NCBI GenBank assembly: GCA_008632985.1
Contig: QPGO01000039.1
Coordinates: 558,001-604,498 of the forward strand
Source: Psammoneis japonica
Taxonomy: Eukaryota
Length of the DNA stretch: 46,498 nucleotides
Direction of reading: 5' to 3'
Shown here: piece by piece, positions 5,472-35,467 of the stretch
Layout: every line of letters begins with the position of its first letter
Numbering within the stretch: the first letter of the stretch is position 1
Notes under the pieces: model-generated
What the model was told of the DNA's origin: nothing
What the model saw: only the letters and a program-made list of their open reading frames with translations
Databases searched by the model: none
Position numbers and translations under genes: made by a program

Positions 5472-5611
5472 AATATGAAAGACGATGGATTGTGCAAGCA
5501 AAACTCTACAAGAGTTATCGCAAAATTGCGGGTAAAAATGGTTGTACAAGATGTAGTACAATATCTCCCACAAAAAATCAATCATCATTCCTCTCGTTCG
5601 CTCGCTCGCTC

Positions 5612-7080: not shown

Positions 7081-7854
7081 GGTTGCAAAGGAATGATGGA
7101 TGCGTCGTTGTGAGAAAAGTGAGAGCAAAGATTTTTCTGGTACTGAAATCACGTTGAAATCTACGGATACTTTGTATTCGAAGTAAGTACGTCATACCTA
7201 CCGACGTCATCATATCGTCACATCCACGTCATCGACTCTTTGCATTCTGTCTGTTTGATCTGTTTGTCCGCCAAAAATATGATCGTTTTCCCGATTTGAA
7301 TTTTGAATTTTGATTTGTGTTGTTTGTCCGACCTCCACTTTATTTTCATCTCCATGATTGAAGTGTGAATATAATGTACGTCATATTCAACGAATTCAAC
7401 AGAGAACTCCAGAATCACCTTTTAGCCAATCAGATCGTCAAGATTTCGAAATGTTTCCGTTGAACAGCTGTTCTTTCTTATCATCAACGAATATTCTGTG
7501 ATGATTCAAACAGGACGTCACGACTGATGGATGCTGTCAACCACGTACCAATCACTTCATGGTATGTTTCTACGTATATTCTACGAGGAATTCTTCGCAA
7601 AGGAGGTGGCGGGCGGCGGGCGGCGCGCCGGCATTTTTGCGTGTGCTTTTTCTGCCCGTGCTTTTGCCGCGGTATTTGCATCGGCAAAAAACGTTCTTCT
7701 GCTTGTTGCGATCCAACAACCATCCAACGAATTGTTGGTTCAAACGGGATCGAACAACGAACAAGAGGGTGTCACAACTCTAGAGAGCAATCATATCGTT
7801 CGTTCGAAAGCGAGTGCAGTGCATATAGAAGACGAGACTTTCATCAAGACGGAC

Positions 7855-9704: not shown

Positions 9705-9997
9705 TGTTTCTTTGTAGATACTGTTGTAAAATTATGATAAGGCGCTAGGGAAGGCTCGAACTGACAGAGGAAGAAAGCATGAAAGGAGGAGCAATGAGCA
9801 ATACAAGTCCAAACCCAACACAGACAACGCAATTGCGGTTTCCGTATTTTAAAATAGAAGATTAAGGAAGCCTATGTAGAGCGGAAGGTAACAGCAGAGG
9901 GAGGCACGGAGGTAGCTGTAGAGACGGTAGAGTAAAAGGGTCGATGGACGCAAGACGAAGGGCGTTTTGTGGAAGGTATGGGTGAGGAGGGGGCAGG

Positions 9998-10344
9998 TGT
10001 GACAATATTCATATTTGCATGTTTTTACAACAACATCGGACCTCCACGATTCCAATCAGAGATCCAAGATTCGAACCCCGTGTGCGATGCTCAGTCTCGA
10101 ATCCCGCGGAAGCCGAGTCACGAATGCGATGTTTGTTCCTAGCTTCGCGCTTGTTTAACTTCGCGTTTCCTTTAGATGGCAGCTGCATCTGCTCATAAAA
10201 ACTGCTCATAATCTTTCTAACGTATTGATTATCACCTCTCAACTTTTGGTTCAATAAAGTTACTGATTGATTGTTGTGTCGCAATCACAGCTTTTGATCA
10301 CTGAAAGTGCAGACGAATCTCAGAATTCCGGCTACTTTCCCACA
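9998..10344 (+). repeat. 5' LTR
   Basis: TGTGACAATA...TTTCCCACA; no differences from 16227-16573 seen by eye. Confidence 0.97.
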
Positions 10345-10358
10345 CGCTTCCTCTGCGC
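10342..10358 (+). promoter_or_regulatory. Putative primer binding site
   Basis: (ACA)CGCTTCCTCTGCGC at the 5' LTR end. Its reverse complement GCGCAGAGGAAGCG resembles the D-arm of eukaryotic initiator tRNA-Met. Confidence 0.55.
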
Positions 10359-10418
10359 AACCTACAAGTTAAGTCAATCGATCTTAAGCTCTCGATTCTA
10401 CTTTACTTTGCTGTTACT

Positions 10419-11924
10419 ATGGTCACGCAGACACGAACCGCGGCTGCTCTAGCTGCCTCTGTTGCAGCTCCCGCTGCTGCACCCGCTGCAGCTCCTACCA
10501 CTGCTGCTGCTCCGGCAACAGCACCTGCTCCTGCAGCCGCTCCAGTTGCTCCTGTACCTCCCCCAGTCGTTCCTCCCGGTGCACCTCCAGGAGGAGGTGG
10601 CGGAGGAGGTGGAGGAGGAGGCGGAGGTGGAGTCCCACCAGGTGGAGTCCCGCCAGGTGGACCACCATTGGCACCTGTGCCACCACTGCCGATCTTCGCG
10701 TTGACTCCAGGTCAACACCGTCCCAACAACTTCATCGACTACGGCACATCGCAAGGCCTCAAGCTTTGGAACGCCGCTACTGCACCGCTGCCGCACGAGT
10801 TCAACGGCGATTCAGAAGGTCTCAAACGGTTTTGTGAGACACTCAGTCAACGAGCTGCCGAGGCAGGATGGAAAACAGGGGCAGGAGACATACTTACCAT
10901 TCCCGACGCGAATGGAACTCCACGAGATCTCATCTCCGAGTACGGACTACTCACTCTACAGGATGTTAGAACCCACGCGAACACCTTCGCGAATCTACCT
11001 ACGCGACAAGCACAGAACAATGTGCAGATGGCCGAGGCGATCTCTCAATCCCTTACGGAGGAAGCAAGAGACAAGATATTGGCTGAGATAGATTCCTATA
11101 CGATCAATGGAAATCAAATCGGCACACTATTCTTCAAGCTACTTACGCAAAAGGCCATCGTTGACACACGCTCTACCACTAACTACTTCCGCGAGAACTT
11201 GTCAAGCCTGGATACCTACATGGCGGCTGTTAACTCGGACATCGAAGAGTTCAACAAGTACGCCAAGCTCAACGTTGATGGACTCCAAGCTAGAGGAGAG
11301 CAGTGCGACGACCTTATCATGAACCTATTCAAAGGATACGCCGCAGCTGCTGACGAAGTATTCGTCAAGTACATCATGTTATACAAGGACAGGTACGACG
11401 ACGGTGAGGAATTCACGCCGACGCAAATCATGACGTTGGCACTGAACAAATATACTAACCTCAAGCGCGAGAAGAAGTGGGGAGCACTGTCACCGGCTGA
11501 AGAGCAAATCGTCGCGCTTACAGCCAAGGTGGACTCCATCAAGGATCAGAACCTTCAGCTATCTAAAGCTTTGAAGGCCAAGGCTGGTTCAACCAAGGAA
11601 AGAAGCACACGGTCAAGGAAGACCAAGACTACTCCACGTCAGAGACAGAAAGCGGACGAAGCCTGGAAGAAAGTCCCGCCTAAGGAGGACGCTCCTAAGA
11701 AGACAGTGAACGGTCATCAGTACTATCACAAGCGCGTCAACTATCGCGACTATCACTGGTGCCCATATCACACTGCTTGGGTCATACACTTACCTGATGA
11801 TCCGGGCAACCAAGGCTGTAGACTCCGCAAGCAACAGTCTGCTCCATCCACAGACACGTCGGACAAGAAAGTCTCCTTCGCAAGTGCTATCTCTACCATC
11901 CTAAATGAAGTGGATCAAGAGTGA
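10419..11924 (+). CDS. gag: Copia Gag
   Basis: First ORF after the LTR; Ala/Pro/Gly-rich N-terminus, helical core, C-terminal WCPYH..WVIH...C motif. Confidence 0.85.
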   Translation: MVTQTRTAAALAASVAAPAAAPAAAPTTAAAPATAPAPAAAPVAPVPPPVVPPGAPPGGGGGGGGGGGGGGVPPGGVPPGGPPLAPVPPLPIFALTPGQHRPNNFIDYGTSQGLKLWNAATAPLPHEFNGDSEGLKRFCETLSQRAAEAGWKTGAGDILTIPDANGTPRDLISEYGLLTLQDVRTHANTFANLPTRQAQNNVQMAEAISQSLTEEARDKILAEIDSYTINGNQIGTLFFKLLTQKAIVDTRSTTNYFRENLSSLDTYMAAVNSDIEEFNKYAKLNVDGLQARGEQCDDLIMNLFKGYAAAADEVFVKYIMLYKDRYDDGEEFTPTQIMTLALNKYTNLKREKKWGALSPAEEQIVALTAKVDSIKDQNLQLSKALKAKAGSTKERSTRSRKTKTTPRQRQKADEAWKKVPPKEDAPKKTVNGHQYYHKRVNYRDYHWCPYHTAWVIHLPDDPGNQGCRLRKQQSAPSTDTSDKKVSFASAISTILNEVDQE

Positions 11925-14900
11925 CTGCTCTACAGGTTCACTCTGACACTGCTGCTGTCCTTGCAGATAGCCGTCACTGTGTCAGTGCTCCTGATAGCGG
12001 TCGCTGGCGTCATGAAATGTGCAGCACCGATCTGGATCATACTACTATTCATGATGCTATCCCTTCCTTCAGAAAAGTGTAAGCGCCTGTCACATGCCGT
12101 AATGACGCTGGGTGAGTGGGTCATCTCACATATCCTGGCTGAACTAGGCACAAGACGAGTTAAGACTTACCAGCGACGGCCAACGACGAGGTACTGCGCA
12201 CGGTATCATACGTCGACGAGGCCAGGTCACCGCTCCAGAGTGGCCACCAAGAAGGCTCGCTATGTCATTACGCGATACAAGACGGTTAGAGCGTACAACT
12301 CAACCACACCATACCGTCCCGAGCGAACGGAGCCCACTTACGATTCGGACTCATTCGTAATCGGTGTCGATTCGCATTCTTCCTGCACCATGTCCAACGA
12401 CGAGGCACACTTCATTGGTCCTCTTCGCAAATCCAACAAAGTGGTACTCGGTGTCAAGGGCTACTTACGTGCTAAGGGAGAAGGAACAGTGCAGTGGGCA
12501 ATTGAGGACGACATGGGACGAGTGCACAGCATTAAAATTCGAGACGCACTCTATGTACCCGACTTACCTCATTGTCTTCTCTGCCCGCAGCAATGGAGCC
12601 AGCAAGCTAATGACCACACGCCAGAGCCTCACGGAACCGTATCTTGGACTAGGGACGACGGACTATTACTCATGTGGGATCAACGCAAGTATCATCGCCT
12701 GATTCCATGGTCCGCCAACTCTAACGTCGCCAAGATGCGCTCCGCACCCGGTTCCAACAAATACCGGACCTTTGCAGCCGCTGTCGAAGAACAAACCGAT
12801 ATCGAAACTATCGAGCACGTGGCCTATCAAGCTCACATCATACCACCAGACGACGAGAGTATTGCGAATGATGACGAGGCTGCAATTGATACAGACGTCT
12901 TCAGAAGTCCATCCGAGACACGTCCTTCCGAGACGCAAGACGCACGCAACACTACTGATGAGGATGCTCCTGTCTTATTTGAGCCAACAGACGGAGCAAG
13001 TCGTTCAGACTCAGACGAGGAAAACCTAAGGGATTTCACGACACCGGAGGTACAGCAGGACTTACCGGAACCCATCAACATCATACCAAATGATGACGCC
13101 CTTGCTGCCACAGATGACCAGGGTGAACTATTGCGTTGGCATTACCGCCTGGGCCACATGTCATTCAAAATGATAAAGCTATTGGCCGCCCTAGGCATTC
13201 TACCGAAACGCCTTACAAAGGTACACAACCCAAAATGTGCCGGCTGCCTATACGGTGCCATGACGAAACGACCATGGCGCTCCAAGTCCAAGCGGAACCG
13301 ACGAATCCACTTGGCAACTTCGCCTGGAGAAGCCGTATCCGTCGACCAGCTCGAAAGTCCTACTCCTGGACTGATCCCACAGCTCAAAGGGAGACCTACG
13401 AAACAAAGGTATCGAGCAGCGACAATTTTTGTTGATCATTTCAGCGGATTGGGATACATATATTTGCAGAAAGGACTTACCTCAGCCGAGACGCTCGAAG
13501 CCAAGCACGCTTTCGAGGCATTCGCACGCCGGATGCACGTCCGTATTCAACACTACCACGCCGACAATGGAAGATTTGCTGATAATACTTTCATACAAGA
13601 CGTCAAGAAGCAACAGCAAACAATATCCTATTGTGGGGTCAACGCCCACTTCCAAAACGGCATCGCGGAGAAAAGAATAAGAGACCTCCAAGAGCAATCT
13701 CGGAAGCAACTCCTGCATGCAAAAGTGAGATGGCCAACGGCTATTGAGTTGAACTTATGGCCAAGCGCTCTCAGGAACTCAAACGAGATCAAGAATCACT
13801 TACCGAATCACGAGGACGGCTCTTCTCCGCTGGAACGTTTCTCGTCCGTCAAGGTCCAGCCTAATCTCAAACAACACCATACCTTCGGCTGCCCCGTCTA
13901 CGCCTTGCACAACCGGTTGCAGGGAGGAGGTAGGCTGCCTAAGTGGGACCCAAGGGCAAGGTTAGGAATCAATTTGGGACCATCAACAAGACACGCAGGT
14001 TCAGTTACCTTGGTTTTGAATTTGCAGACCGGACTCGTATCGCCGCAATTTCACGTACAATTTGACGACTTCTTTGAGACTGTTCGTCCATCTGCTGGGA
14101 ATCCTCCTACATTCTCACAATGGCAAGGCATTACAGGTTTCAGACAACTCAAGACAAGGAGTACTTTCAACATCTTTGGGAAATCAAGTGACGTACCGGT
14201 TGAGGGATCAGTCCCTACCACAACGGAACCACCTGAGCCGAATTCGGATATCCCGTCTCAGCTGCTGCATCCTACTGATACGTCTACCACTGATGACTCA
14301 TTTGACAATGCCCAACCGGATGATGAAATGCTATACACGCCTCCAGATGATTCTGACGCACCATCTGAGCCACAGCGCACTATGGGTCAACCCAGTACCA
14401 GTAGGTCCGGCCGACAACGACGCCCGACCGAAAGAATGCGCGAGAGCCAACTACAACGGGCTCAAGGCATTGTCTCCTACAATGCAGAGGCAGAGGCATA
14501 TTATGATGCGATGCACGAGGATGATTACAAACTGCAGGACGATATGGACTCACCTATCTCTTTTCTGGCGAGCTCGGACCCCGACACCATGTACTTTGAT
14601 CAGGCCATGCGTGAACCTGACAGAGACGAATTTATCAAGGCCTGTGTTAAGGAGGTCAATGATCATATTGAAAGGAAACATTGGATACTCATTCCAAGAG
14701 AGGACGTACCTGACGATGTTGATGTTCTCCCTTCGGTATGGTCTATGAGGCGCAAAAGAGATATTAAGACCCAAGCCGTCTACAAATGGAAGTCCCGACT
14801 TAATGTGCACGGTGGAAAGCAAGAGTATGCTGTCAACTACTTCCAGACCTACTCTGCCGTGGTCTTCTGGTTCACTATCCGGCTCCTACTGATCATTGCC

Positions 14901-16183
14901 ATTCTTAAGAAGTGGCATACACGCCAAGTCGACTTCGTTCTGGCGTATCCGCATGCCGATATCGAATATGATATGTACATGGAGTTACCTGCAGGAATTG
15001 AAACAAAACATGGCAATGGTAAGACTCATGTTCTGAAGTTGCTCAAGAACTTATATGGACAAAAGCAAGCAGGGAGAGTATGGCAAGAACACTTACGTGA
15101 TGGATTGTTAAGGATTGGTTTCGCACAATCGGCGGTTGATGAGTGCCTGTATTTTCGTGGCAATGTCATTTTCATTCATTATGTCGATGACGGTATCTTT
15201 GCATCCCCTGACAAGTCTGCTATTGACAAGGCGATACAGGATATCAGAGATGAGAATTTTGATATTGATGATCAAGGCACTCTGGACGACTATCTCGGTG
15301 TCAACGTCGAGACACTACCAGACGGCAGAATGAAACTTACCCAACCTCACCTTATCAATCAGATACTGGAGATGGCCAATATTCCAAAGAGACTACCAGA
15401 TAAGTCTACTCCTGCTCCTTCCTCCAAGATCCTCCACAGGCATATGAGTGAGCCTGCTTTCCAAGGGAGCTTTCATTACCGATCCATCATCGGCAAGCTC
15501 AATTTTCTGGAGAAGAGCACTCGACCGGATATCGCTTACGCGGTGCACCAAGTCGCACGCTTTTCTTCCGATCCCAAGGTTTCTCACGGTGAAGCCGTAC
15601 TATGGCTCTGTAAGTACCTAAGGTCAACCAGAACTGAAGGTATTATACTACAGCCCTCAACGGACAAGTCCCTTGAAGTTCACGCCGACGCGGACTTTGT
15701 GGGCAATTGGAATAAGCTGACTGCACCCAATGACGTCGGCACTTCCAAATCTCGAACTGGGTTTGTCATCACCTATGCAGGGTGTCCGATTGTCTGGACG
15801 TCCAAGCTACAGACTCAGATCGCGCTCAGCACTACTGAAGCTGAATTTATCGCTCTTTCGGAAAGTCTTCGAAGCGCCATCCCAATTATGAACCTCATTC
15901 AAGAATTTATGGATCACGGTCATAATGTCCCTTCCAAGACACCAGTCGTACATTGTAAGGCTTTTGAAGACAATTCTGGAGCATTGGAGATCGCGAGATT
16001 GCCTAGATGCGTCCTCGGACAAAACACTTCAACCTCACTCTCCACCACTTTAAAGACCATGTTCGCAAAGGTCTCATATCAATCCTACCAATTGATACGG
16101 CGGATCAGATTGCAGACATTTTCACCAAACCTCTACCACAGAATCTCTTCGTTAAACACAGGAAATCGCTCCTTAAGTGGTAA
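11925..16183 (+). CDS. pol: Copia Pol (protease, integrase, RT, RNase H), in frame with gag; 1-nt frameshift near 16005
   Basis: IGVDSHSS (PR); WHYRLGH..C..C, VSVDQ, HADNG, QNGIAE (IN); LYGQKQAGRVW, YVDDGI (RT); HADADF, STTEAE, EDNSGA (RH). The shifted frame continues MRPRTKH...QIADIFTKPL to TAA at 16181-16183. Confidence 0.95.
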
Positions 16184-16226
16184 GACGTTTTCGAGTCATC
16201 ATTCCACCCGACATTGTTGAAGGGAG

Positions 16227-16573
16227 TGTGACAATATTCATATTTGCATGTTTTTACAACAACATCGGACCTCCACGATTCCAATCAGAGATCCAAGATT
16301 CGAACCCCGTGTGCGATGCTCAGTCTCGAATCCCGCGGAAGCCGAGTCACGAATGCGATGTTTGTTCCTAGCTTCGCGCTTGTTTAACTTCGCGTTTCCT
16401 TTAGATGGCAGCTGCATCTGCTCATAAAAACTGCTCATAATCTTTCTAACGTATTGATTATCACCTCTCAACTTTTGGTTCAATAAAGTTACTGATTGAT
16501 TGTTGTGTCGCAATCACAGCTTTTGATCACTGAAAGTGCAGACGAATCTCAGAATTCCGGCTACTTTCCCACA
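16227..16573 (+). repeat. 3' LTR
   Basis: Copy of 9998-10344, followed by GCAGG. Confidence 0.97.
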
Positions 16574-18249
16574 GCAGGGAGAGAGGAGGTGAATCGGAGG
16601 ATGTGCGTAGAAAGGTGAAGAACAACGTTGTAGCCAAGAGTTTGGGTGGCCCACTGGGATGGGGTGGCTGTACGGCAGGTGTTTCCAAAGCGATCGGCGG
16701 ACAGGCGACGCCATGCGGAGTCAGCAGAGGGAAGGATTGCAGACGGAGATGATAAAGCATAGAGGAAGGCGGAGTAGGAGGCATCAGAGTGACGAAGGTC
16801 AGAGGAAGAGGACCAGGGTGGCTTGGGCTGAGAGCAGACGGAGGGGGATGTAGAACCAAAGAGCAAGCGGTGGGCAAAGTGGCCGAGACCACCAAGGTGA
16901 TCTACAGTGAAGGGGAGCAGAAAGATGCCATTGTTGTCAAGCGAAGAAACAACAAGGGATCCATCGGCAGAGGAAGTGGAGGGGCCAAGAAACTTCAATC
17001 TCGCGCTCGAGTGGTGTGCCTCAGTTAAGACAGGAGAAAAGGGGGCAGGCAGACCTGGAGGAGGGCGAGAGGAAGCTTGAGGGACGGTGACGTCCACTGC
17101 AATGTAGTGATGGCGGGAGGGAGCGGAAAGGGAGGCGGGAGGGGGGATTGAAATGCCGACATCGGCGGGACGGAGAAGCGGGCGGGTGGGGAGTAGGTTG
17201 GTGGGTTCAAGATGAACGTCATTGGGGGATCGACAGAACTCTGCAAGAGGACCCAAAGTTTGGGCTAGGATGAAAACAGTGTCACGGAGACCATTGGAAA
17301 GCTTGGACTTGTGAGCACGGCGGCAAGAAAAGGCATGATCACCACAGGCATCCAGAATGGCATGGCCACAGGGACAGGGAGTGTTGACAAGGGACGGAGG
17401 AAGGATGGGGAGACGAAGCTTACGAAGGGCGGCAACAGCGCAGGCGTCCGAAGAAAGGCAGGAGCTTGGAAAGCGACGAGAAAAGGAATGAAGAGGGAGG
17501 CTTGTAAGCGGAGATAGCAATGAAGGGAGTGAAGATTGCACGTCGTAAGATGAGTTAGCAAGGATGGAGGTCACTGCTTGTTGCTGATGTTCATGGCAGA
17601 GACGACGGGCCAGGCCGGGGAGAGTGGCCGATTTAACCAGGGCAGCCAAGGAAGAAGAGGAAAGGGTAGAGGCGGAAGCCAGAACGGGAGCATGACGGCG
17701 GAAGAGCGCATGGAGTCGTAGGGAAGAGCGAGGGTTGGACCAGGAAGACAGGGAGAGCCGAAAGCAGCGCGGAAGGGAAACAGAAGCGCCAGATGGCAGG
17801 CTGACACCGTGCGAAGCAAAGCGGAACGAGCGGAGAAGCGACACCAAGAAGGAAGGAATGGCGGTGGCTGTTGGGTCCCGGAGACCGAACCCGCCTAAGG
17901 AGGCAGGAAGGAAGGCGATGGCAATGGAGTGGTCGGGAAAAGGAGCGGCGAAGGAAGTGACGCAGTGTAGAAAGCGGTGAGTGATGGTGAGGAGGAAATC
18001 TTGAAACGGAGAGGTCCAGAGAAAGGGGTCGGGAGGATCATCGGGGTCGAAGTTGCAGTGGAAGTCAGCGCCAAGGAGGTGAGCAGAGGATGGAACAAAA
18101 CAGTGCTTGAAGAGTTGAGCCTGGGTTTGGGTCCGTTGGGCCCGGTGGGCCTCGCACGCAGTTGGGGACGTCTCCAGCCAGCCAGCCGCTGGCTGAAAAA
18201 ATTCTGTCCGTCAGTGCGTTAGGGGCACAGCATTCCACGACCCAACGCA

Positions 18250-21200
18250 CTGTTGGCGCAATTTGATGACGATGACGATGGCAAAAGACGGCTCCCGGGG
18301 GCTTCTATTTTGTGCACTACAATGTGTCCAACGCCTTCCACAAACACTGTCACACCCAATGCAAGTGATGATGAAGAAAGCTCGCTGCAATTCGAGGTGT
18401 CCGTTGCCAACGGCAGTGATGTGTGCAAGGCGGGGTTCGTGCTTCCATCGTCACCCGCTGGATCCATGGCTCCAATTCCAGTGGCAAAGATTCGTGGAGT
18501 CAAGGCTCTCATTGACTACACCATGCTGCCAAACAACATGAAAGACAATGACAATGGCATGTGGACGGATCCAAAGCTCCACACCGAGCTTTGCAAGAAT
18601 CTCAGAGCACTCCCGCGCGGAACGAAAACTGCTGCCGATGGACGTCGCTTGCCAATGTCCCTCATCCTTGATGCAAGGACACTTCAAGAGAAGCTCATTG
18701 TAATTAATTGGTGGTGCAGCTTGTCTCCGGATGATAAAAGGAAGGAGTTTGACAGATTGAAGTGCATGTGTCAACGTCCTGCTGTTTCCAACGAGCGCGT
18801 TCCGGAGCCCGAGAAGGTCGTGCTTTGTTCCGATGCTCAGGAAATGCTGGACGAGCATGTCAGGAACAGTGCAAGTGGGAAAAAGCTTTCAGGAAAGTGC
18901 CAACGCACTCGTGAAGACTTGCTGGTGAAGCCACACCATGCAATGTCACGTCCTGTCCGCAGAGCAGTGTGCGAGATGTTCCCGTCAACTGCAAGTTGTC
19001 TCTTGTTTTGGAGCGAAATGTTGGTGCACCACGCAAAAATGGAGTTGCTCCACTAGATGAAGCCATTCCACCTCATCCAAAGAGAATTGTTGTCATTGGT
19101 CTCAACCGCAAGAACCTTCCTTTTGACGATGACTGCATCAAATGCATGACTGGCGATGACGACAGCACTGTGCTCTGTGGTTGCTTCATGACAATGAGAG
19201 TGAGACTCACTCAGAGAGAAAAGTGAAGCATGGAAAGAGTGAAATTGTCAAGAACTCAGCAGAGATGAGCCAAAACACTTGTCACACATCATGCATCATC
19301 AACTTGGATTCAGAACTCTGAGTGATCCAACACTCTCAGCTCGTGCGAGCACACCAGATGCCACTGACACTGTGTCAAGATTCAGCCAAAGAACTTCAAC
19401 TTGAGCCTGCTGTCATCTTCTGCTCTCTCTGTGACTCCATTGAGATTGAGCAAGGCTTCAAAACAACTGGAGTGGATTGCACCTGATGTGTGCAATGCAA
19501 TTGGGCGCTGCAGATTGTCTCAGCTGTGACTGCAACAAACCTTTTCTGTCAAGACAGAACTGATCCATGCGCGCTGGGCACTCCCTCTGTGCACAAAACT
19601 TGTCACCCAGCATTTCCTGTCTCCTCTCTTGTGATCCTGCTGACTGGAACAAAGTTGTTGAACATCTGGCTTGTTGCCAACATGCCAAAGATGTGGGATC
19701 TTCTTGGTGGTGACAAACAAATGTGGAGGAGAGCACAATTCATTGCACTCCTCGACCCCCCACGGTGTCACATCAAGGTTGTTCAGAATGGCAGCAAAGT
19801 CAGACAATGCCACTTCCCCAATTTCATGTGTGTCTTTTTTGCTTGGCAAGAACACTGCCAGGACTTTGTCAGCAGCACTTTCCTTCATCCATTTGTTCCA
19901 ATTGGTGTGATTTCAATCAAGTGGAGGATCCTGATTGCAGGGCAGTTCACTGATCAGAGGCACCTGCAACAGCATTGCTGTCCATTCAGCAGCACTGCCC
20001 TGACCGTCCTTCATGTTGACATTGTCCCCAGAACAAACAGGAGGCTTGTGAGTTCCAAGATCAATGCGCTGAGCCATTGCCTCTGCGCTGCCCTTCTACA
20101 AAGATCATGTGAAAGCACACTGCAAGACTTGACAAGTCTCATCCTTGCCAAGAGCTCACAAAGCTGTGTTTGTTGGCTTGTTTGAACTTGAAATGACAGA
20201 ATGTTTGCAGCACAACCAACGCCCTTCTTTGGATCCACTGCACGGACTGTCAGATCTTGGCAGATGGCCACAGCAAAAACCTGGGGCTGTTGCCCGGCAT
20301 CTTTCAGGTTGATGTTTTGATGTGGCACAACCCCAGTGCTCATCGCAAAAAACCCTTCCCGAGCATCGTGAATCAACATTTGCCACATGTCAAAGCAGAT
20401 CATCAAGAGTCTGCACATTTGAATGCCCCTCTTCCTTGTTGCCTTCTGATGAAGCACATGACAATGGCATCACAGCCGAATGGAGCCAAACATTGGTGTC
20501 GACGTGGTTTTGTTCATCAGTTGCCGAGGGAAGGAACTCAGCATTGGCAGACAGAGTGCACTGGAGCTTCTGCAGTTCAAGTTGGTGATTCTCAGAAAAT
20601 GGTGTCTTGTGCATCATGTTTGCCAACAATCCATTTCCCACCCAGTCTCTTTGATCTGATTCACCCATCTTTCTCAAATTTGCTGGCCACAGACGGAATG
20701 CATCGACAACCTCATGAGGCTCAACAATGCTTCGTGAAATCTCTTGCACCTCAAGCTCATCTCCATCAACATTCCTTGCTCTCTTCTGTCCTGTCCTTGT
20801 TTGACTTTTTGTTGTTGGTGCTCTCCAAATTTGATGGCTGGTGATGGCATGGTCACAAGCCGTGCACTGAAGCGAGCTCTTTCCTCCAGATGCTTCCAGT
20901 TCTGACAGAGAGCAAAGACACAAAAGATGGCCACAAGGATTGAGCTCAACTCTTGGCATCTTACACTTGCCAGCAATGTCTGCTGCACATTGTTGGCAAT
21001 GCGCTGGAGCTTCCGTCATCATGGTGAAACATGTGCCACTCGTCACTCTTGGTCCAGGATCAAAATTGGACATGCTGCTGAGCTTGTCAGCTGCTGCACT
21101 TGCCTCAAGAGCACTCTGGAGGCCAAGTGTCACAAGCTGTCTCAAGCTCTCTGTGTCCTCCTGTCCAAGTGCGCCATTCTGGAAGTCACGAGTGTGATCA

Positions 21201-21900
21201 ATGCAGAGCCCCATCCTCTTGCGTCATCCATCCACGTGAGAGTGTGCATGGCGCGAGTTTGGGGCAGGAAATCAAGTCATTTTTTCCCTCACAGCACATG
21301 AGCAGCACATCACAAGTGGGAACATGGTGCTTCCCAGTCAAGTTTCATTGGCTCTGGGAGCATGCAAGTGACAAGTGCTTGCTCTGCAAGTGTGCTGCCA
21401 GCCAGTGGTCCTTGGGCCACCTCGCCAAGCCTGTCACTCACGGCACCAGCGGAAGTCTCGAGTGCAGCCACTGTGTGAATCAAGGCTGGTGATTGGTTTT
21501 TGTTTGTCACTCATTTGTGGCCTGGTTCAATGTGAAAGAAACCCCCATTTGTCTCTAAACTTACAAAACCCGCCTTGTTTGAGTGAGAGGGAAAGTTGGG
21601 GTTGCTGTTTGTCCTTTTGTTTTGGGATTCCTGATCAATCTCATTGAGTCACAAGCTGCACATTTTAAACATGGCCAGTGCTCATGGTTCCTGCATTCTG
21701 CACAGCTCAACAGCTGTTGTCAGTGCCTGTCTTATTGGTGCAATGTCAGTTGAACGTAAAATGCTGTTGGTGAGTCTTCTTGGTTGTTGCATTCTGTCTG
21801 TTAAAAGAGTTCACATCAGGGAGCACTGTGGCGTTTGAAAAGTTGGTCTTGAAAATCAAAATTTCACACAAGTCTAAGCGATTCCTCAAGCATGCTTGTA
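18250..21900. other. TpA-depleted (and partly CpG-poor) domain 2; unidentified coding relic with a RING-like motif
   Basis: No TA seen in 19056-20096 and very few up to ~21550. The minus-strand ORF 20390-21214 contains C..C...NPCGHLLCLC...QCTAC. Confidence 0.8.
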
Positions 21901-22172
21901 AGCAATGTCGAACAGCAGCAACGTCGCCTGTTGTTCCCCATCAAGACAATTTACACAACATTTACCGATCTGTCGCGCACTACACACCAGTTTTGAGTTT
22001 TGAGTCATTTTACAGATGCGCCTAGTAGTAGCAGTGATGATAGAACTATTAGAAGGATACGATCGCAGTTGTGACTAGATTTAGGAATCTAATAAGGACT
22101 AATCTAACAAAATGTAATTGAGAAGACAAATGCAGCGGTCCGTGACGGCCGATAGGGCTCCAAACGACGATT

Positions 22173-24927
22173 TCACAGTTTGGTCGAAGGCATGACAACA
22201 GAGGTGCAACTGCGACGGTTGTTGGCCTTGTCCCTAGCGACAACCTTCAATTCCACTTTTCCTGCGCATTTGATCTTGAGATCACCGTTGGGCTTCTTCC
22301 TGAACAGGCACTTATCATTATTGCTCTCTTCAAGGAAGACCTTACTACCAGCTTGGACCTTTCGGACCTTCCCTCCAGCTTTGATAATGGCATTGGTAGA
22401 CTGAACACCACAGTTGTCGGTTGCTCCGAATCTGACGGAATATTTACCACGGCGAGGGTTAATGGATTTCAAAGTGCACCATACACGAGGACGCGTGAGA
22501 TCTTGAACAGCGATTGTCGCCTTGCACGAGCTTGACTGGCCACTCTGATTCTCGGCCGTAAGTGTCACAAGATTGTTCCCAACATTTTCACATGTAAATG
22601 AGCGAGGGGTTGCCGAGAGCGACACGTTGCCGCAGTCGTGAAGCGTTCCGTCGAAGATTTCAGATACAGAAACGGCTGCCGATCCACCACCACCAATGGC
22701 AAGGGCCGTGCTTTTGCACTTAGGTTGAAGATCGCATTTTGGCTCGACCTTTGGACACACATCATCGATTGTCTCCTCGGAGCTGTATTCGATACAACCC
22801 CCGCCATTTCTTGCGTTGCATTCGGTGCACGCTCGAGCATCACTTTTACATCCAATGCATCGAGCAGTGATACTCGCGTTGTAACAGCTATTTTGACCTG
22901 AACAGGATAGAAATACGAATCGGGTTAAATGATCGCCAAAATCGAGAAATGCATCTAAAAGGTTCATACGGTATGCGAAGCGTACCCGTGCAATCCACAA
23001 TGTCTGCGTTGATTTCGGCATCTTTGCAGCTCCAGAGGTCTAATAGAGAGAATAATTGTGTAAGAACAAAAAAAAAATGTGATAGGAAAAGAGAGAATCA
23101 TCAAAAGCAGTTGGTCGCACCTGAGCACTCGATTTTGCTTTTTGTCGCATTTATCTTGGCGCCACGACAGTTACCTTCAACGTGCACAACACATGTAACA
23201 GTAAGAGACATGCAATTGGCGACAAGCGAACATATCAAGTTCAAGCGTACCGGAACAGTCGACTTCGTCAGCTGTAATCTTTGCTTCGGAACACGTCCCA
23301 GAGCAATTGACTTCATGGGCATCGATTTCGGCGCGGTAGCAATTTCCTTAGACATAAAGCAACAAAACAAAATCGTAAGTCAAATCAGCGATGCGTATGC
23401 ACTGGTACTCAAACTTAATAACCTTACCCGCACAATCCACTTTTGCTGCCTTGAGCGTAGCATTGTAGCAAGTACTGAAAGGACCAGTACAATTTACATT
23501 CTTTGTTGTCGTGATACTGGAATGCTCGCACGCATATTCACCGTCGCAATCAACACCATCGGATGCTGTGATTGTGGCATTGGAACAACTCGTGACCCCG
23601 CTACAGTTGACGTGGGCTGATATAAAGAGTGCGGCATCTCTGCAACTGTCACTACCTGGAAGCCCCGGTTGCGCATGGTTGAGAGAGGATGAGAAAACAA
23701 GACGATCTTTTCGAGCATAAGAGAAGAGTTCGGGAAGAGTGACGTACTTTGGCAATCGATATCAGCCATTGCCATTATGGAGGCACCTTTACAGCTTGCA
23801 GAAGCTGAGAAGGTGAAGCGCGAAGCGTACCGTAGGATGAGTGTATTAAGGGCCGCGTCGAGAAAACATGGAGATACAACAAAAGACTATTCCGAACGTA
23901 CCAGAGCAATCGACCTGGGTTGCATTGATTTCCGAATCCACGCAAGAATGGGAATAACCTAACCCAACAAAGCAATGATCAGAATACCGCCCTCTCTAGT
24001 GACGACAAACCAAATGACTCGCAATCATGATTTGCACTTACCGGCGTTACTACAATTTACCATTGTCGCCTTGGAGATTTTGGCACCGTCGCAGACTCCT
24101 GGAGCAAGAACAATTTGACACATGAGAATTGTGAGTGACCCGCGACTCACAGAGTAAGAGGCGACGGGTAAAAAGTACGTACCATGTCCAAAGCAACTGA
24201 CGTTGTCCGCCTTGATAATGGCTCGATGACAACAGCCTGGAAAATGAAAAGGAAGAAACATGAGTAACAGTAATTGTATCCAAATTTTCAGGTTCTCACG
24301 TATGCAATTTACCTTTACAGTTTTGGGAGCAATGTACCTCATCAGCTGAAATTTTCGCATCTGCGCAGCTTCCGATTTGACCAACACAATCGACTTTGCT
24401 TGCCGTGATTGTGGAGTTAACGCAGCCAAAATAGCCTAGTCAACAAGGAAAGGAAGCAAAAATTGAGTGTGCCAGACACGGCAGATTATTCAAAGAAGAA
24501 GCATCAGAAACGCAAAGCGCAGCCGTACCGCATGTGACAGCCCCCCCGGCGGAGATGGTAGCATCACGACAATTCCCCTTATTGATGTCTCTGAAAGAAA
24601 ATGGACCAGGGAAGCAAGAGACGTCATTCTTTGCCAAGATTGATGACCCGGAACAGCTTGAAGATACTAACACAAGAAAGAGAAGAATCACAATTGAAGC
24701 GAGAGAGTAAGAACGCCGCCGCCATATGTATGTGTGAAGTCCGCTGACTGCGACAATCGAATTATCATACCATAACATCCAACATTTTCACAGCCACTTG
24801 TGGAGCAGCTACCGCACTTTGACCTGGGATAGTCATCCTTCGCAAATGAGCACTGCAGGAGCGAAGGTTGGGCGCTTGTTGAGCCGCTCAGAACGAGGGC
24901 AATCATCGAAGCAAACTTGCGAATCAT
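22173..24927 (-). CDS. Secreted Cys-rich repeat protein with C-terminal HYR-like domain, about 12 exons
   Basis: Signal peptide MIRKFASMIALVLSGSTSA. Short GT-AG-bounded exons encode C..A.I.A..V.C.G units. The last exon has DCG...FTCENVGNNLVTLTA...SCKATIAVQDLTRP. Confidence 0.75.
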
Positions 24928-28365: not shown

Positions 28366-28881
28366 GATGGTGCGTCTCAGGTCAGTAGTTGGTGCTGGGC
28401 ACAGTATTAATAGTTCATCAACAGCAACGTGTCATACACAGCATGACATGTTGCGTTGTGAGATGTGAGAAGATCGATGGCACATCAAAAATGGCGCACG
28501 CACCGGGCAGGACCGCGCGTGTCGCTCATAGCTTTTTGAAAATAAACAAAAACATACAGGCATGACGGAAATTTCATGCACTCTTCAATTTATAAACATA
28601 TTCGTGACTAAATTTTATATTCAAATTGCAACGCGATTCAACACATTTTGATGCATTTTGTCGAATACCGACCAAATCAATGAGCGCGGTTCGCTTCACA
28701 TTTTCTCCATCCTTCGATCCCCCCTCCCACGTTGGGAGTGTTCGATCCCAATCTCAATCACTCTACTGTAGCAATCATTTTAAAATACGAGAAGCTACCG
28801 TGAATGAGTTTTTGCTGACGAGAGAGCATTTGCAGCAACAGTTCATCACTCCGTTGGGTCCGATATCTCACAATCAGACCC

Positions 28882-30464
28882 ATGCGTAATTCCATTAAAA
28901 GAGCAGCATCTTTGGTTGCAGCACTGATCCTGGCTACTTGCGTTAGCGGCCATGACGGGCACAACAGCTTTGTCCGCACTCATCATTGCGGAGCGCACGA
29001 CCTTACCTCTGAACAGCTTCAACAAGATGCGGCGCGAATGAATCAAAGAAGATACAGGCGACGTCGAACCGAGAAATGTGTGCAATGCATCAAAATCGAT
29101 ACTTACTTCCATATTATCAGCGGCTCCAACGGGGTTGGTAATGTGACCAACAGAGCAATACAAAAGCAGATTGACGTTCTAAATACCGCTTTTGGGAGAA
29201 CCGCCTTTTACTTCGAACTGGACAGCATTACTCGAACAGCAAATGATCAATGGTTTTCATTATCTGATCCCCGCGAGGAAACAAGTGCAGCATTCGAAAG
29301 AGAAATGAAGGATTCTCTGAGACAGGGTGGTGCAACAGCATTGAACATTTACTCGGTCGATATGAAATATCTCGGATTTGCGTCGTCACCCATTGAGTAC
29401 TCGGTCTCAGACTCCAAGAATGATGGAGTCGTTGTTCTCCATTCGACATTACCCGGAGGCGTCGCCCACCCATTCAATTTTGGTTTCACTTTAGTTCACG
29501 AGGTTGGTAAGTAGAATACGAGGTGCGAACGATAGAGCATTGATATCCATTTATTGACGAGCTGGGACTTAACCTTATTGTTGTAGGTCACTGGCTGGGG
29601 CTATTACACGTATTCGCACCCGATTGTGATGGACCGGGGGACATGGTCCATGACACTGCACCTCAACGGTCTCCAACATATGGATGTTCCGAGAGAAAAG
29701 ACTCGTGTCACGAGCATCCTGGGAAAGACAATGTGAAAAACTTTATGGATTACAGTGACGATGCTTGCATGTCAGAGTTTACATCTGGTCAAGCGGAAAG
29801 AATGCTTGACCAGTGGTACATTTATCGCCAGAAAGATGAAGAATGCGGACCAGGTGAAGTGATTATTGAAGTTGATGTCAATCTGGACGAGAAACCAGAA
29901 GAGATATCTTGGAGTCTCGTCAATGAAGGAGGATCTTCGATGGCCGCAAGAAGCTATGATGCCAACCGTGACAGCAACGACCGCCTTGTATCCGATTTTT
30001 GTATCCCTGTAGGAGTGTACGTCTTTACTATCCTCGATCAAGGAGGAGATGGAATTTGTTGCGACAAGGGAGAAGGCAGATATAAGATTTCTGTTGACGG
30101 TGAACCAATCAAAAAGGGAGGAAACTTTGGGCACCAAGAATCCACGGAAATCATGGTTCAGCATGCTAACCAAAAGGATCAACTATCAAATGAGACTGAC
30201 GCCATTGCTAACGCCCCAGATCCATCTCCTAACATAACTTCAGAATCATCTTCGTCGATTGCGACCCATGAAGGCGTAGGTCTTACATCAATGGTGGAAG
30301 AGACGGAGAATGCATCGAGTCTCCCGGCATGGTTAACATGGCTCTGCGTTATTCTTATGACATTCGCAGCGGGGTGTTTGGTGTATCTCTCTGTTCCCTT
30401 GCTCATCAGTTGCTCTTCACCCGTCGAAATCGAAACTGAGGAAGTTGACAAAGAGATTCCGTGA
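28882..30464 (+). CDS. M43 (pappalysin/ulilysin-like) zinc metalloprotease, copy 1; intron 29507-29586
   Basis: Signal peptide, HCG Cys-switch, spliced HEVGHWLGLLH, NFMDYSDDACM Met-turn, C-terminal TM helix. Confidence 0.93.
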
Positions 30465-30970
30465 CCAACAAGTGCACGGCATGGAAGATATCGTGTTTTC
30501 CTTTTCCTACAAGGCAACCAGTTTGCTGTTCTACTTGTATAGCTGACCCTCGACTCCTGGCCTCCAAAGAAATAGAAACCCTTATTTTGAGGTTGCTCAC
30601 GGGACTTGCAGACTAGCATCTCTGCGCGGTCCTTGTTGAAAAAGGTCAGGTATCAGCCATATTCGGGACTTCTGTCTTTTAAGTTACACGCAGCAGTGCA
30701 TTTGTCTACTTTACATTACATTCGACTGCGTTCGGAGACACAACATTCGTGTTTGACACTACTTTGATGGCCAAAACAGCCTCCACTATCCTCATGGACT
30801 GTGTTTGAGAAATGCTTGCCATGCACTCGTTTTGCTTGTCACGGGCTCACCGGCAACCGAAAATGGTCCCAGCTAATCACAGAAACTCTTCGGGGCTTGC
30901 GACTTCGCACCTAATTCAGGTACACCTCCCAGAACTCCGCTGTCTGCCTTTGCAGCAGCGGCGGCTGCAG

Positions 30971-32657: not shown

Positions 32658-33505
32658 TGTCAGTTGTGTCGCGTTCGGAAAAGATTAAAATAAATCAGAG
32701 GGTTGTCACAGATTTGCATTGAAAATCTCACGGAAACGTGGTCGAATCGGATTTGCGAAAAAGAAAATTGCCCTCACGTTAAGTATTGGCAGGAAGGATG
32801 CTTACGATACGTTTTGTCTATGATACCTGTTTCTATAGTAGTTTCTGGTATGTAGATGGTAAGGAGTCTTTATGCCAGGACATCGTGTCTTTTCTCTCGC
32901 TTCCCGCGCCGTTTGCCCTAATTGCTCTTACAAAAAATGTCCAAACTCTTCTGTCTAATGTTAGGAAAATGCACAGGCTTATGTAGTGATTCTCGACTTC
33001 TCGTTAGGGACATTTTTCGACCGATGGATGACTGCCGCCTGACGACTGACTCTGCCTGGACGTTCACGAAAAACACAAATAATCGTGATTCTGGTTGTCT
33101 TTTGCCTTCAGTCTTGCCTCGAAACACTTCCACATAACGAGGTCATTTTGATTCAATGACAGCCGTCAAGTCTAGGCCCTATCGTTACTGTAGTGCGTGG
33201 CATGGACATCATGCAATCGTTGATTATTTGTGCTTTGGGCGCGATTCGACCTTCCCGCCTAACATTGATGATTAACGAATTCGTTGTTAGAATGTCGTCC
33301 CACTATGCAGTATTTCCATGCGAACACCATGTTGCATGTAGGGCCCTTTGACACATTCATCGAATACCGGACGGCGAAGTTGACACGGCGGATTCGCATT
33401 CGCATTCGCTCCATCATCACTCTCTGCTCTGTGCTGGTTCATTCCCATAAACTGCTCATCTCTATTCTCTATCTCTCTCTATCCCTTTCTCAAATTTTCA
33501 GTTGC

Positions 33506-35044: not shown

Positions 35045-35467
35045 CCAATCGCACCGAATGGACGGTGCATTGCGGTCCGTTTTAAAAGAAAACAAAGATT
35101 TGTACCTCCTCGCCCTTATGGACGAAGACCCGGTTTCGTCGACAAGCAACGCTCTAGATCAAGCGAGCTGCAAGGTCGAATAGCCGGGGCACACGTTGGT
35201 AACAAAAAATGCCCTACCGAAAATAATAGATTGCTGTTACGCTAAAGGGGTTTTATACGTACAGTAAAACGGCGCGTCACGACAGCAAAACTGAACCTGA
35301 CGCTTCATCATGTTGTGAATGACAATGAGATACATTTCAAAGAATGTATCTATAATGTATAAGCAATAGACAATTGCAAATCAAAGCACCCCAATTATAA
35401 TCATAACTGGAGTTCGACACGCCTTCTTCTGGCACCGAATGTTCCCCATGGAGAGAAACGTTGTCAT

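Follow-up and report, generated by a model that had tools for sequence, protein, structure and literature searches.

Near-complete loss of TpA from a repeated locus and its flank beside nested retroelements in an algal genome

Introduction

What can remove one dinucleotide almost completely from several kilobases of a genome? The question is raised by a near-TA-free stretch of 3.7 kb in an algal genome, found in a window of 46,498 nt (the window being the whole stretch of DNA that was analysed). In mutation-accumulation lines of the alga Bigelowiella natans, two integrated viral regions had acquired 231 mutations, of which 230 were A-to-G or T-to-C, those all at TpA (Mettrop et al. 2026, bioRxiv 10.64898/2026.01.13.699255). 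The text of this preprint also describes 124 TpA-poor clusters genome-wide, with RT, DDE and zinc-finger Pfam families enriched among TpA-poor coding sequences. For the locus studied here, three points have to be decided: whether TA was lost or was never there, whether the loss took place in RNA or in chromosomal DNA, and whether the shortage of CpG in the same block belongs to the same process.

Results

Extent of the TA depletion

TpA is slightly under-represented in the window as a whole (observed/expected ratio, o/e, about 0.6). In the 500-nt bins from 18001 to 21500 the TA counts are 3, 4, 1, 0, 1, 1 and 0 (o/e 0.00–0.14), followed by 11 in the bin starting at 21501 and 27 (o/e 0.75) in the bin starting at 22001, and the remaining bins of the window mostly have an o/e of 0.4–0.9. 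The core of the block, 2,499 nt long, includes two TpA, as against about 104 predicted from the 41.8 TA/kb of the window's normal part (Poisson P about 2e-42), and 1,000 mononucleotide shuffles of the same sequence gave a mean of 163 TpA and a minimum of 130. The TA-free gaps 19054–20097 (1,043 nt), 20097–20962 (865 nt) and 20962–21556 (594 nt) are three of the four longest in the window. A first-pass annotation of this DNA had described about 1 kb without TA and few TAs up to about 21550, and its coordinates are right to within a few bases. On the right side the change is gradual, with 0, 0, 2, 3 and 6 TA in the 200-nt bins from 21000 to 21800 and a normal level from 22000. The TpA still present in the block lie at 18306–18735, 19054, 20097, 20962 and 21556–21950. 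The TpA that survive are enriched for a 3' purine, G included.

The core is correspondingly rich in TG (110.8/kb, o/e 1.82) and CA (112.0/kb, o/e 1.76), the normal part having 71.2 and 74.0/kb. In the 1-kb windows starting at 19001, 20001 and 21001, Rho_TpA is 0.01, 0.03 and 0.17 and Rho_CpA+TpG is 1.81, 1.75 and 1.71, the latter by our own reconstruction of the pooled formula, which may differ from the published one. These values lie within the cluster definition given in the preprint text, i.e. at least three consecutive 1-kb windows with Rho_TpA no higher than 0.43 together with Rho_CpA+TpG no lower than 1.52 (Mettrop et al. 2026). ORFs of at least 80 amino acids crowd all six frames of the domain because TAA and TAG are gone and TGA is the sole remaining stop, an explanation already offered in the first-pass annotation. 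No convincing terminal inverted or tandem repeats were seen at the block ends, tRNA and Rfam scans of 16000–22500 gave no match, and none of 83 ORFs of at least 45 amino acids in 16400–22100 matched Pfam at the curated cut-off.

A second TA-depleted region, domain 1, lies at the start of the window, with a TA o/e of 0.09 in 1–3000 and 0.27 in 3001–4000 and a CpG o/e of 0.74–0.81. Its ORF 723–2045 (441 residues, with 2 Tyr, 24 Cys and 13 His) has a GLUG motif (E 4e-14). The HYR-like ORFs 2198–3277 and 22176–23039 were considered as a mutated and unmutated pair of paralogues and rejected, the best match (E 0.002 over 26 amino acids) being too weak. The window also encodes a DXP synthase, which marks its source as a eukaryote with plastids.

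Table 1 Features of the window and the evidence or composition that defines them
Feature	Position	Strand	Basis or composition
Domain 1, TA-depleted, CpG near normal	1–3900	.	Composition
Young Ty1/Copia LTR retrotransposon	9998–16573	+	LTRs, target duplication, domains
Fragment of a non-LTR retrotransposon, 5'-truncated, with the C-terminal half of an RT protein	16574–18231	-	HSPs of relatives
Left sub-block	18221–19056		TA 8.4/kb, o/e 0.145; CpG 52.6/kb, o/e 0.79
ORF, origin unassigned	18223–19053	+	Ends in TAG at 19054
Repeat unit, several diverged copies in the organism	18234–21070	.	Contigs of sequencing run X1
TA-free, CpG-poor core	19057–21555		TA 0.8/kb, o/e 0.012
Pseudogene of a multi-copy family with N-terminal RING-like zinc finger	19808–20998	-	Protein homology
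Apparently single-copy flank, TA-free or TA-poor, CpG-poor	21071–21950	.	Contig coverage
Right transition zone	21556–21950		TA 20.3/kb, o/e 0.26; CpG 17.7/kb, o/e 0.375

The adjoining retroelements

The block adjoins two nested retroelements, as had been noticed in the first pass; the Copia element lies inside the 5'-truncated non-LTR fragment. The Copia LTRs (347 nt, 9997–10344 and 16226–16573) are identical and are bordered by the 5-bp target duplication GCAGG (9993–9997 and 16574–16578). The domains RVT_2, gag_pre-integrs, SH3_retrovirus and Pol_BBD were found, and the order gag, integrase, RT is kept. With a TA o/e of 0.68 this element is not depleted, and since it is untouched and its LTRs are identical, there is no sign of present activity of the process at the locus.

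The ORF of the non-LTR fragment (16564–18210) had 547 matches at E ≤0.001. Its full-length relatives are about 1150–1300 amino acids long, and their C-terminal halves match the window ORF. RVT_1 was found at E ≤0.001 in six of the eight relatives scanned, in four of them above the Pfam cut-off; Pfam did not find it in the window fragment. A putative CCHC and an endonuclease-like motif were seen in the fragment by eye. It is mildly depleted of TA (o/e 0.34), and the ORF offers just two conserved Tyr columns, which read F and C and have no statistical power. The HSPs of 34 relatives of at least 900 amino acids all lie between 18231 and 16564. The TA-free domain was also considered as the missing RT half of this element and rejected, as the relatives stop at 18231 and a loose tblastn of 18150–22000 gave scatter at chance level.

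A repeated target and depletion across its borders

The target is duplicated DNA. The summed contig depth in sequencing run X1 is 243–444 over 18335–21006 and a flat 59.7 over 21174–22175, so that the repeat unit stands at 4–7 times the unique level. By identity, 124 of the 357 contigs are at ≥99%, 70 at 95–99%, 88 at 90–95% and 75 below 90%, and contig joints lie at 18214–18234 and 21067–21070. From 21174 the flank is covered by one contig only (20990–22208), with zero differences. Its single-copy state was judged at a likeness of at least 80%, a level at which more diverged or unassembled copies would escape, and a longer element that takes in the flank is therefore conceivable.

The left sub-block (Table 1) includes ORF 18223–19053, which has a coding-like codon-position bias (60% purine at position 1). 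No homologue was found among 625 candidates, nor a Pfam match or an IMG/VR relative, and no PDB match was below E of about 0.6.

The TA depletion ignores these boundaries, running from the non-LTR fragment across the repeat unit and into the flank. This course fits regional hypermutation in place and does not fit RNA editing before integration, the alternative in which a retroelement transcript was hyperedited from A to I by an ADAR-like activity on dsRNA and then fixed by reverse transcription and integration. The two adjoining retroelements speak for such a route, as do the near-equal excesses of TG and CA, which editing of RNA from both strands would yield. Contigs of other copies link 18214–18234 with 21067–21070 on opposite strands, and inverted arrangements able to form hairpins may therefore exist. 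ADAR prefers U before the edited A, as is also stated in the Discussion of Mettrop et al. (2026). We nevertheless consider this route improbable. No RT or other retroelement feature was found in 18250–22000, either by Pfam (the 83 ORFs) or by tblastn with the 34 RT relatives. The three units that are depleted, one of them apparently single-copy, are unrelated, and the depletion does not stop at element ends. The Copia, the sole recent element that was certainly retrotransposed, is unedited. TA removal is nearly complete and A in other contexts has been spared, a specificity far beyond that of ADAR editing, and the 3' preference of the surviving TpA is opposite to the 3' G preference of ADAR. 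In B. natans, moreover, integrated DNA is mutated where it lies (Mettrop et al. 2026).

Direction of the change in DNA

Over the whole stretch, 406 of the 517 places that differ from run X1 contigs are transitions. Forty of 520 difference rows were classified, 38 of them in 17597–18685, two past 22200 and none in the core. Among the 38, 25 are transitions. In ten places the window has TG or CA where other copies have TA, and the reverse was not seen among the differences listed. The other listed transitions are six that make up three TG/CA swaps, four with window TG/CA against CG, two with window CG against CA, and three in other contexts. Within the non-LTR fragment, position 17597 reads CA in the window but TA elsewhere, and the pairs 17865/6, 18039/40 and 18059/60 are TG/CA swaps between copies. 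The reading of TA as ancestral and TG/CA as derived is thus supported at the DNA level by a small sample of listed rows outside the core.

A broken RING-like gene in the core

Within the core, protein homology identified a pseudogene. Twelve family proteins (P0151–P0162) matched it at E 1e-109 to 5e-9; in tblastn they begin at 20998 and reach 19808. The frame shifts near 20356 and again near 20080, and TGA interrupts it at 20390–20388 and 19915–19913. Matches of P0154 to RING are below threshold, and the family has no Pfam domain above the cut-off and no TE domain. A PDB search with three minus-strand ORFs gave nothing below E 0.37, a match to the CBL RING at E 0.6 being a hint only, and an AlphaFold2 model of P0159 from a 12-row alignment was unusable (mean pLDDT 44.6).

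Columns were called conserved when at least three homologues covered them with a majority of at least 60%. Tyr (TAY) is kept at none of six conserved Tyr columns, which read I, H, C, H, C and F, i.e. Cys or His (TGY, CAY) in four of the six. The family residue is kept at 111 of 216 conserved columns overall, giving P of about 0.013 for the loss of all six. Five more Tyr columns, each from a single homologue and read by eye, have P, H, A, C and T. Five of six V-to-A, L-to-P and I-to-T replacements use the NCA codon predicted from NTA. Among 12 first-position replacements of the A-to-G type, 8 come after a T, compared with 15 of 36 controls, a weak difference (P 0.12). Direction within the core is read only from these six (or eleven) Tyr columns, with homologues at 41–52% identity.

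Low TA could instead be the intrinsic composition of a foreign element, for instance a viral one, that never had TA, and the first-pass annotation had named equally TA-poor copies as the sign of this. What was found is the opposite. The window copy has Cys or His at two columns where eight of eight and seven of eight homologues have Tyr, and other DNA copies have TA where the window has TG or CA. This supports a mutational loss and not an intrinsic bias, and the foreign-composition reading, largely refuted by these copies, seems to us very improbable. A coding sequence without Tyr, TTA, CTA, GTA and ATA codons is also implausible as a working gene. In favour of a foreign origin, the family lacks a recognised Pfam domain and was seen on short contigs only, and weak protein-atlas leads (0.87–0.89, under the 0.9 line) name RING proteins from giant viruses and from Preplasmiviricota; two scores of 0.89 and 0.80 are likewise leads only. 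Two scans of IMG/VR gave no viral relative of the family, and DNA of the homologues was not found in JGI metagenome contigs or IMG/VR. As to the origin of the targets, the non-LTR fragment is a transposon, and the RING-like family is repeated, without an IMG/VR relative and without a TE domain.

The state of this gene also bears on selection against TA (for mRNA stability, codon usage or avoidance of TA-targeting transposons) in a functional gene cluster. The slightly low TpA of the whole window would agree with it. The frameshifts, stops and missing conserved Tyr of a pseudogene refute it; the two strands and a flank that matches no known protein are depleted to the same extent, and we give selection next to no credence.

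The CpG deficit

The CpG deficit of 19057–21800 is a second feature of the block and is separable from the TA loss. In the core CpG falls to 16.8/kb (o/e 0.28), compared with 48.3/kb (o/e 0.74) in 1–3000, 54.0/kb (o/e 0.98) in 22001–46498 and a similar level in the left sub-block (Table 1). The first-pass annotation had observed that CpG is scarce in the middle of this block, unlike in domain 1, and had taken TA loss and methyl-CpG decay to be separable processes that converge on TG/CA. Both the scarcity and the separability of the TA and CpG losses hold, since the left sub-block and domain 1 have lost TA and kept CpG; the convergence is partly arithmetic. Pyrimidine–purine steps number about 240/kb everywhere in the window except in the purine-rich non-LTR fragment (200/kb), and with a near-constant total a shortage of TA and CG forces a surplus of TG and CA. 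The TG/CA excess of the core is common to both losses, with no apportioning between them. The constant total was dropped as proof of direction, because it fits transitions and yet near-constancy is expected anyway.

Our best guess, from the sequence, is that the deficit reflects decay of 5-methylcytosine in a methylated part of a silenced region. Three of 13 family-conserved Arg columns now read His or Gln (CAT, CAA, CAA), as CGN-to-CAN decay predicts, and the CpG-poor zone continues to about 21800, inside the apparently single-copy flank. Among the differences listed, window TG/CA against CG elsewhere outnumbers the reverse by four to two, all of them outside the CpG-poor core. The deficit could instead have been inherited from an element already poor in CpG, or have followed from the G and C that were added, in either case without any methyl-CpG decay, and we hold this to be a serious possibility, if a little short of an even one. 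The change from TA to TG/CA adds G and C and makes no CpG, so that CpG o/e drops automatically, by an estimated factor of about 0.8. In the broken gene 18 of 26 Arg codons are AGR, compared with 40 of 165 in host ORFs, which could be original codon usage. The fall in CpG is abrupt at about 19056, together with the end of ORF 18223–19053, and resembles the boundary of a sequence unit rather than the edge of a chromatin domain. CpG has no occurrence in the main text of Mettrop et al. (2026), and no paper that treats B. natans, DNA methylation and Dnmt5 together was found in the literature searched.

Discussion

Taken together, the block is probably genomic DNA after a local and nearly saturating TpA-to-TpG/CpA hypermutation of silenced repeats and their flank. 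The changes would be A-to-G on either strand, invariably at an A preceded by T, and the mutated zone would comprise the dead RING-like copy, ORF 18223–19053, the 5' part of the truncated non-LTR element and about 0.5–0.9 kb of flank. The gene is destroyed, with Cys or His in place of Tyr, plus frameshifts and stops. By analogy with the mutation-accumulation result in B. natans, mutation is presumed to have taken place on chromosomal DNA, in place (Mettrop et al. 2026). The agent may be an adenine deaminase acting on DNA; the text of the same preprint proposes an ADAT2-like candidate. The first-pass annotation had read two such domains in 22 kb as a recurring, genome-wide process, which would fit the 124 B. 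natans clusters, provided that the organism is the same.

The process may be a genome defence aimed at a chromatin region and not at a sequence. More specifically, we tentatively suggest, as a reading that is more doubtful than the hypermutation itself, that TpA hypermutation works as a regional defence similar to RIP, guided by silent chromatin rather than by viral sequence as such. It would be recruited to ordinary cellular repeats, act to saturation, spread several hundred bases into unique flank, and partly coincide with the decay of CpG (5mC). The locus would represent an end state, with TpA virtually gone, the Tyr codons of the family gene all lost and only TGA stops left, and it would extend the process to non-viral repeats. 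If both the flank spread and the partly overlapping decay of CpG are real, the target would be recognised as a chromatin domain rather than a sequence, and the edges of TA-free zones, compared with repeat edges and methylation, would give a simple genomic read-out. DNA adenine deamination would then, if the region-based reading is true, be tied to the machinery of methylation and heterochromatin. The process would also be present in a second lineage, should the window come from an organism other than B. natans. For annotation, TA-free zones yield many false ORFs and mask decayed genes from homology searches.

RIP, in Neurospora and other fungi, a process that the Discussion of Mettrop et al. 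(2026) cites as well, converts CpA to TpA in repeats, which raises TpA and AT content. The block is like RIP in its dinucleotide-specific transitions in repeated DNA and in the killing of genes, and RIP can also leak into adjoining unique sequence. It is unlike RIP in that TpA is erased (o/e 0.012), CpA is in excess (o/e 1.76) and GC content goes up, which points to chemistry on adenine and not on cytosine. Repetition alone is insufficient here, as the young Copia repeat has been left untouched.

ADAR, on repeat-derived dsRNA, and APOBEC, on animal retroelements, have RNA, or cDNA in the course of reverse transcription, as their substrate and leave marks on nothing but the mobile element. Clusters of deaminase-type transitions in repeats, and the 5' U preference of ADAR, are shared with the block; the marks described here cross element borders, and their specificity for TpA is near absolute. 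The CpG o/e of 0.28 with an excess of TG/CA in the core resembles methyl-CpG decay, from which the block differs in that only a part of the zone depleted of TA has the deficit.

In the literature searched, the 2026 preprint is the sole report of chromosomal DNA undergoing targeted A-to-G hypermutation (Mettrop et al. 2026). The locus is like the B. natans clusters described in that text in that TpA is down and CpA+TpG is up to within the numerical definition of a cluster, and that the Pfam families enriched there include those of TE-type targets and a zinc-finger motif. TpA makes up 4.2% and CpA+TpG 14.5% of dinucleotides in the host part of the window, against means of 4.1% and 13.7% in B. 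natans coding sequences. The regions shown to be hypermutable in B. natans are a 186-kb insert from a giant virus (NCLDV), which is single-copy, and a 25-kb one from a virophage, and they keep many TpA (3.3% and 9.2%). The target here, unlike these, is a 2.9-kb cellular repeat with a retroelement fragment and flank, and it is near saturation (0.08% TpA). CpG co-depletion, spread across boundaries and retroelement neighbours are absent from the main text of the preprint. The kind of process is thus already known, and the new details of this locus are the repeat as its target, the spread into the flank and the co-depletion of CpG.

TpA depletion in the window

The window (46,498 nt, 48% G+C) has TpA observed/expected ratios (o/e) that are mostly between 0.4 and 0.9 in 500-nt bins. 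The TA-poor block described in the first-pass annotation is real, and its description is correct in all checkable points. In the 500-nt bins of 18001–21500 TpA o/e is 0.12, 0.14, 0.03, 0.00, 0.03, 0.03 and 0.00, and on the right side it rises to 0.28 in the bin at 21501 and then to 0.75 at 22001. The core of the block, 19057–21555, includes 2 TA dinucleotides compared to 104 expected at the 41.8/kb of normal window sequence (Poisson P ~2e-42), and shuffling the block 1000 times gave 163 TA on average and never fewer than 130. TG and CA reach 110.8 and 112.0/kb in the core vs 71.2 and 74.0/kb in the normal part.

Another TA-depleted zone, domain 1 (1–3900), has a TA o/e of 0.09–0.27 and near-normal CpG. 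Its ORF 723–2045 encodes a GLUG motif (E 4e-14) and has 2 Tyr, 24 Cys and 13 His among 441 residues, and ORF 2198–3277 has a weak HYR match. Since the GLUG motif is mostly bacterial, ORF 723–2045 may be a foreign gene that has been mutated.

TpA sites that survive in the two depleted cores are followed by a purine in 40 of 52 strand-readings of 26 sites, compared to 43% in host DNA (Fisher P 1.5e-6), a bias driven by domain 1 (n = 16 sites) and not significant in the TA-poor block alone (n = 10). The survivors may thus have a neighbour bias, TAY then being mutated more readily than TAR. Some of the surviving TpA in 1–3000 and 18000–21555 are stop codons of long ORFs.

Features of the TA-poor block and its surroundings (X1, a public sequencing run whose contigs were compared with the window)
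Feature	Coordinates	Strand	Basis or value
Ty1/Copia element	9998–16573		RVT_2 and integrase-side domains; flanking duplication GCAGG
Non-LTR ORF	16564–18210	minus	Copia inserted inside
ORF of 277 codons	in 18221–19056	plus	Coding-like codon-position bias
Pseudogene of the P0151–P0162 family	20998 down to ~19808	minus	Protein-to-window mapping
TA-free gap	19054–20097		1043 nt
TA-free gap	20097–20962		865 nt
TA-free gap	20962–21556		594 nt
Summed X1 depth, non-LTR part	17500–18334		1964–7503
Summed X1 depth	18335–21006		243–444
Summed X1 depth	21174–22175		Flat 59.7, one identical contig (20990–22208)

A broken RING-like gene within the block

None of the 83 ORFs in 16400–22100 had a Pfam match at the cut-off. 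The minus-strand ORF 20393–21223 had two related proteins at first and, after a profile search, 12 (P0151–P0162), members of a multi-copy family with an N-terminal RING-like zinc finger. These proteins come from three sources, all on contigs of 611–6193 nt, and are annotated at most as "hypothetical protein". P0154 has a sub-threshold RING finger that aligns with the Cys/His pattern of the window copy. As the stretch to which the family proteins map shifts frame near 20356 and again near 20080 and has TGA stops in frame at two places, the core holds a dead copy of this gene family. For the plus-strand ORF to its left, searches of homologues, Pfam, PDB and IMG/VR revealed no relative.

Neighbouring genes, nested retroelements and a repeat unit

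The window is eukaryotic and gene-dense, with spliced pieces of genes encoding an aminomethyltransferase, XAP5, a mitochondrial carrier, M43 peptidases and DXP synthase; the last, an enzyme of the MEP pathway, points to a plastid-bearing organism. A single N is found at 44279, within the DXP synthase region. Peptidase_M43 genes form a tandem duplicate (28819–30470 and 33272–35050, ~4.6 kb apart) with 77–86% identity over several segments.

The nested retroelements that had been noticed beside the block do exist, the Copia element sitting in the non-LTR ORF. Its LTR stretches of 348 nt (9997–10344 and 16226–16573) are identical and its pol-type frame is open over 1431 codons, so it is a very recent, possibly active insertion; its TpA o/e, 0.68, is normal. 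For the non-LTR ORF, 547 relatives were found at E ≤0.001. In full-length relatives, of ~1150–1300 aa, it is the C-terminal half that aligns to the ORF, six of the eight that were scanned have RVT_1 at E ≤0.001 (four exceed the Pfam cut-off), and in tblastn with 34 relatives of at least 900 aa every match lies within 18231–16564. The element is therefore a 5'-truncated remnant. The block as the missing RT half of this element was rejected, given the lack of a Pfam match and the confinement of the relatives to 18231–16564. Purine-rich non-LTR sequence seemingly continues left of Copia at 9860–9997, where it is TA-rich by eye; if this segment belongs to the remnant, TA depletion along the remnant would be graded towards the block.

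Run X1 contains 77% of the sampled words of 16000–22500, and 357 of its contigs match at ≥80% (124 at ≥99%, 70 at 95–99%, 88 at 90–95% and 75 below 90%). Judged by the step in contig depth, ~18234–21070 is a repeat unit with several diverged copies, and the DNA right of ~21070 looks single-copy at ≥80% likeness. Three X1 contigs connect 18214–18234 to 21067–21070 on opposite strands, so other copies either carry the unit in the opposite orientation to the non-LTR fragment or have that fragment at each end of the unit, as an inverted repeat. Inside the window no long inverted repeat was found.

Direction of change

Among 216 alignment columns that hold three or more homologues and a majority residue in 60% or more of them, the RING-like gene of the window agrees with the family in 111, but in none of the six Tyr columns. 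It has there Ile, His (CAC), Cys (TGC), His (CAC), Cys (TGT) and Phe, and at two of these columns Tyr is present in 8/8 and 7/8 homologues. CAY and TGY are precisely the codons into which TAY turns when its TA becomes CA or TG. Five extra Tyr columns (one homologue each, chosen by eye) have Pro, His, Ala, Cys and Thr. Weaker signs are the NCA codon, as expected from NTA, in five of six Val-to-Ala, Leu-to-Pro or Ile-to-Thr replacements, and first-position replacements of the A-to-G type, which follow T in 8/12 cases vs 15/36 controls (P 0.12). P0152 and P0155 have Cys at a column with Tyr in 5/8 homologues, and P0152 has His where 4/5 have Tyr; with Cys and His replacing the Tyr of other members, these copies may be partly hypermutated too.

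Among the X1 contigs, 406 of 517 differing places are transitions. Dinucleotide classes were taken from 40 of 520 difference rows, 38 of them in 17597–18685 and none within the TA-free core; these 38 comprise 25 transitions and 13 transversions. The window has TG or CA vs TA in other copies in 10 rows and the reverse in 0; at the non-LTR position 17597, for example, it has CA, and most of many other copies have TA. TG/CA swaps account for six rows, in three pairs of equal depth within the pair (17865/6, 18039/40 and 18059/60), which suggests independent hits, on opposite strands in different non-LTR copies, at one ancestral TA or CG. The others, likewise outside the core, are window TG/CA vs CG elsewhere (4), window CG vs CA elsewhere (2) and other contexts (3).

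A family of equally low-TA copies, which according to the first-pass annotation would make the bias intrinsic to a foreign element, is not what the relatives show. These have Tyr, encoded by TAY, where the window copy has Cys or His, and the family is therefore judged not to be intrinsically TA-free, from few columns at 41–52% identity. On these comparisons we consider the reading of the TA loss as mutation to be right.

CpG deficit

CpG falls to 16.8/kb in the core (o/e 0.28), with 52.6/kb in 18221–19056, 48.3/kb in domain 1 (1–3000) and 54.0/kb in the normal part. The proposed separation of CpG loss from TA loss holds, because 18221–19056 and domain 1 are TA-poor yet retain CpG. Methyl-CpG decay is a plausible cause: at 3 of the 13 conserved Arg positions the window copy now has His or Gln, and the CpG-poor zone continues into the flank. 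A composition inherited as CpG-poor may be the cause instead, favoured by the sharp drop at 19056, the end of the plus-strand ORF, and by AGR making up 18/26 Arg codons in the broken gene vs 40/165 in host ORFs; moreover, TA loss adds G and C and by this alone brings CpG o/e down somewhat, with no CpG lost. As to the supposed convergence of both processes on TG/CA, the excess is present, yet it is partly forced, because pyrimidine-purine steps total ~240/kb in all compared regions but the purine-rich non-LTR fragment (200/kb).

A possible mechanism

The depleted zone spans three unrelated parts: the 5' part of the non-LTR remnant, the repeat unit and 0.5–0.9 kb of flank matched by no other contig. 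In-place mutation across a region of the chromosome fits, since the zone crosses all three units while the Copia inside it is untouched. For the same reasons, the pattern does not fit a single element whose RNA or cDNA was edited before it inserted. In the natural ADAT/TadA substrate A34 is always preceded by U33, which would suit a TpA rule. DNA adenine deamination with an ADAT2-like candidate enzyme, as proposed in a preprint on Bigelowiella natans (Mettrop et al., bioRxiv 10.64898/2026.01.13.699255), could be the underlying chemistry. For this locus we infer the enzyme, the targeting signal and any present-day activity; the identical Copia LTRs record no mutation since insertion.

Comparison with known systems

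The process is set apart from RIP by its chemistry and its direction, and from the marks of ADAR or APOBEC by crossing element borders. A full-text literature search found TpA-targeted hypermutation in no paper other than the B. natans preprint, so the phenomenon is striking yet already described. The mutation-accumulation lines studied there had 231 mutations in two integrated viral regions, of which 230 were A-to-G or T-to-C changes, each of these at TpA; 124 TpA-poor, CpA+TpG-rich clusters occur genome-wide, and TpA-poor CDS are enriched in RT, DDE and zinc-finger domains (bioRxiv 10.64898/2026.01.13.699255). The present block qualifies as a TpA-poor cluster by the definition used there, and the host part of the window (TpA 4.2%, CpA+TpG 14.5%) is near the B. 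natans CDS means of 4.1% and 13.7%. Compared with that main text, the new features at this locus are a saturated non-viral repeat as the target, depletion that extends into the flank, partial co-depletion of CpG and a possible neighbour bias of the surviving TpA.
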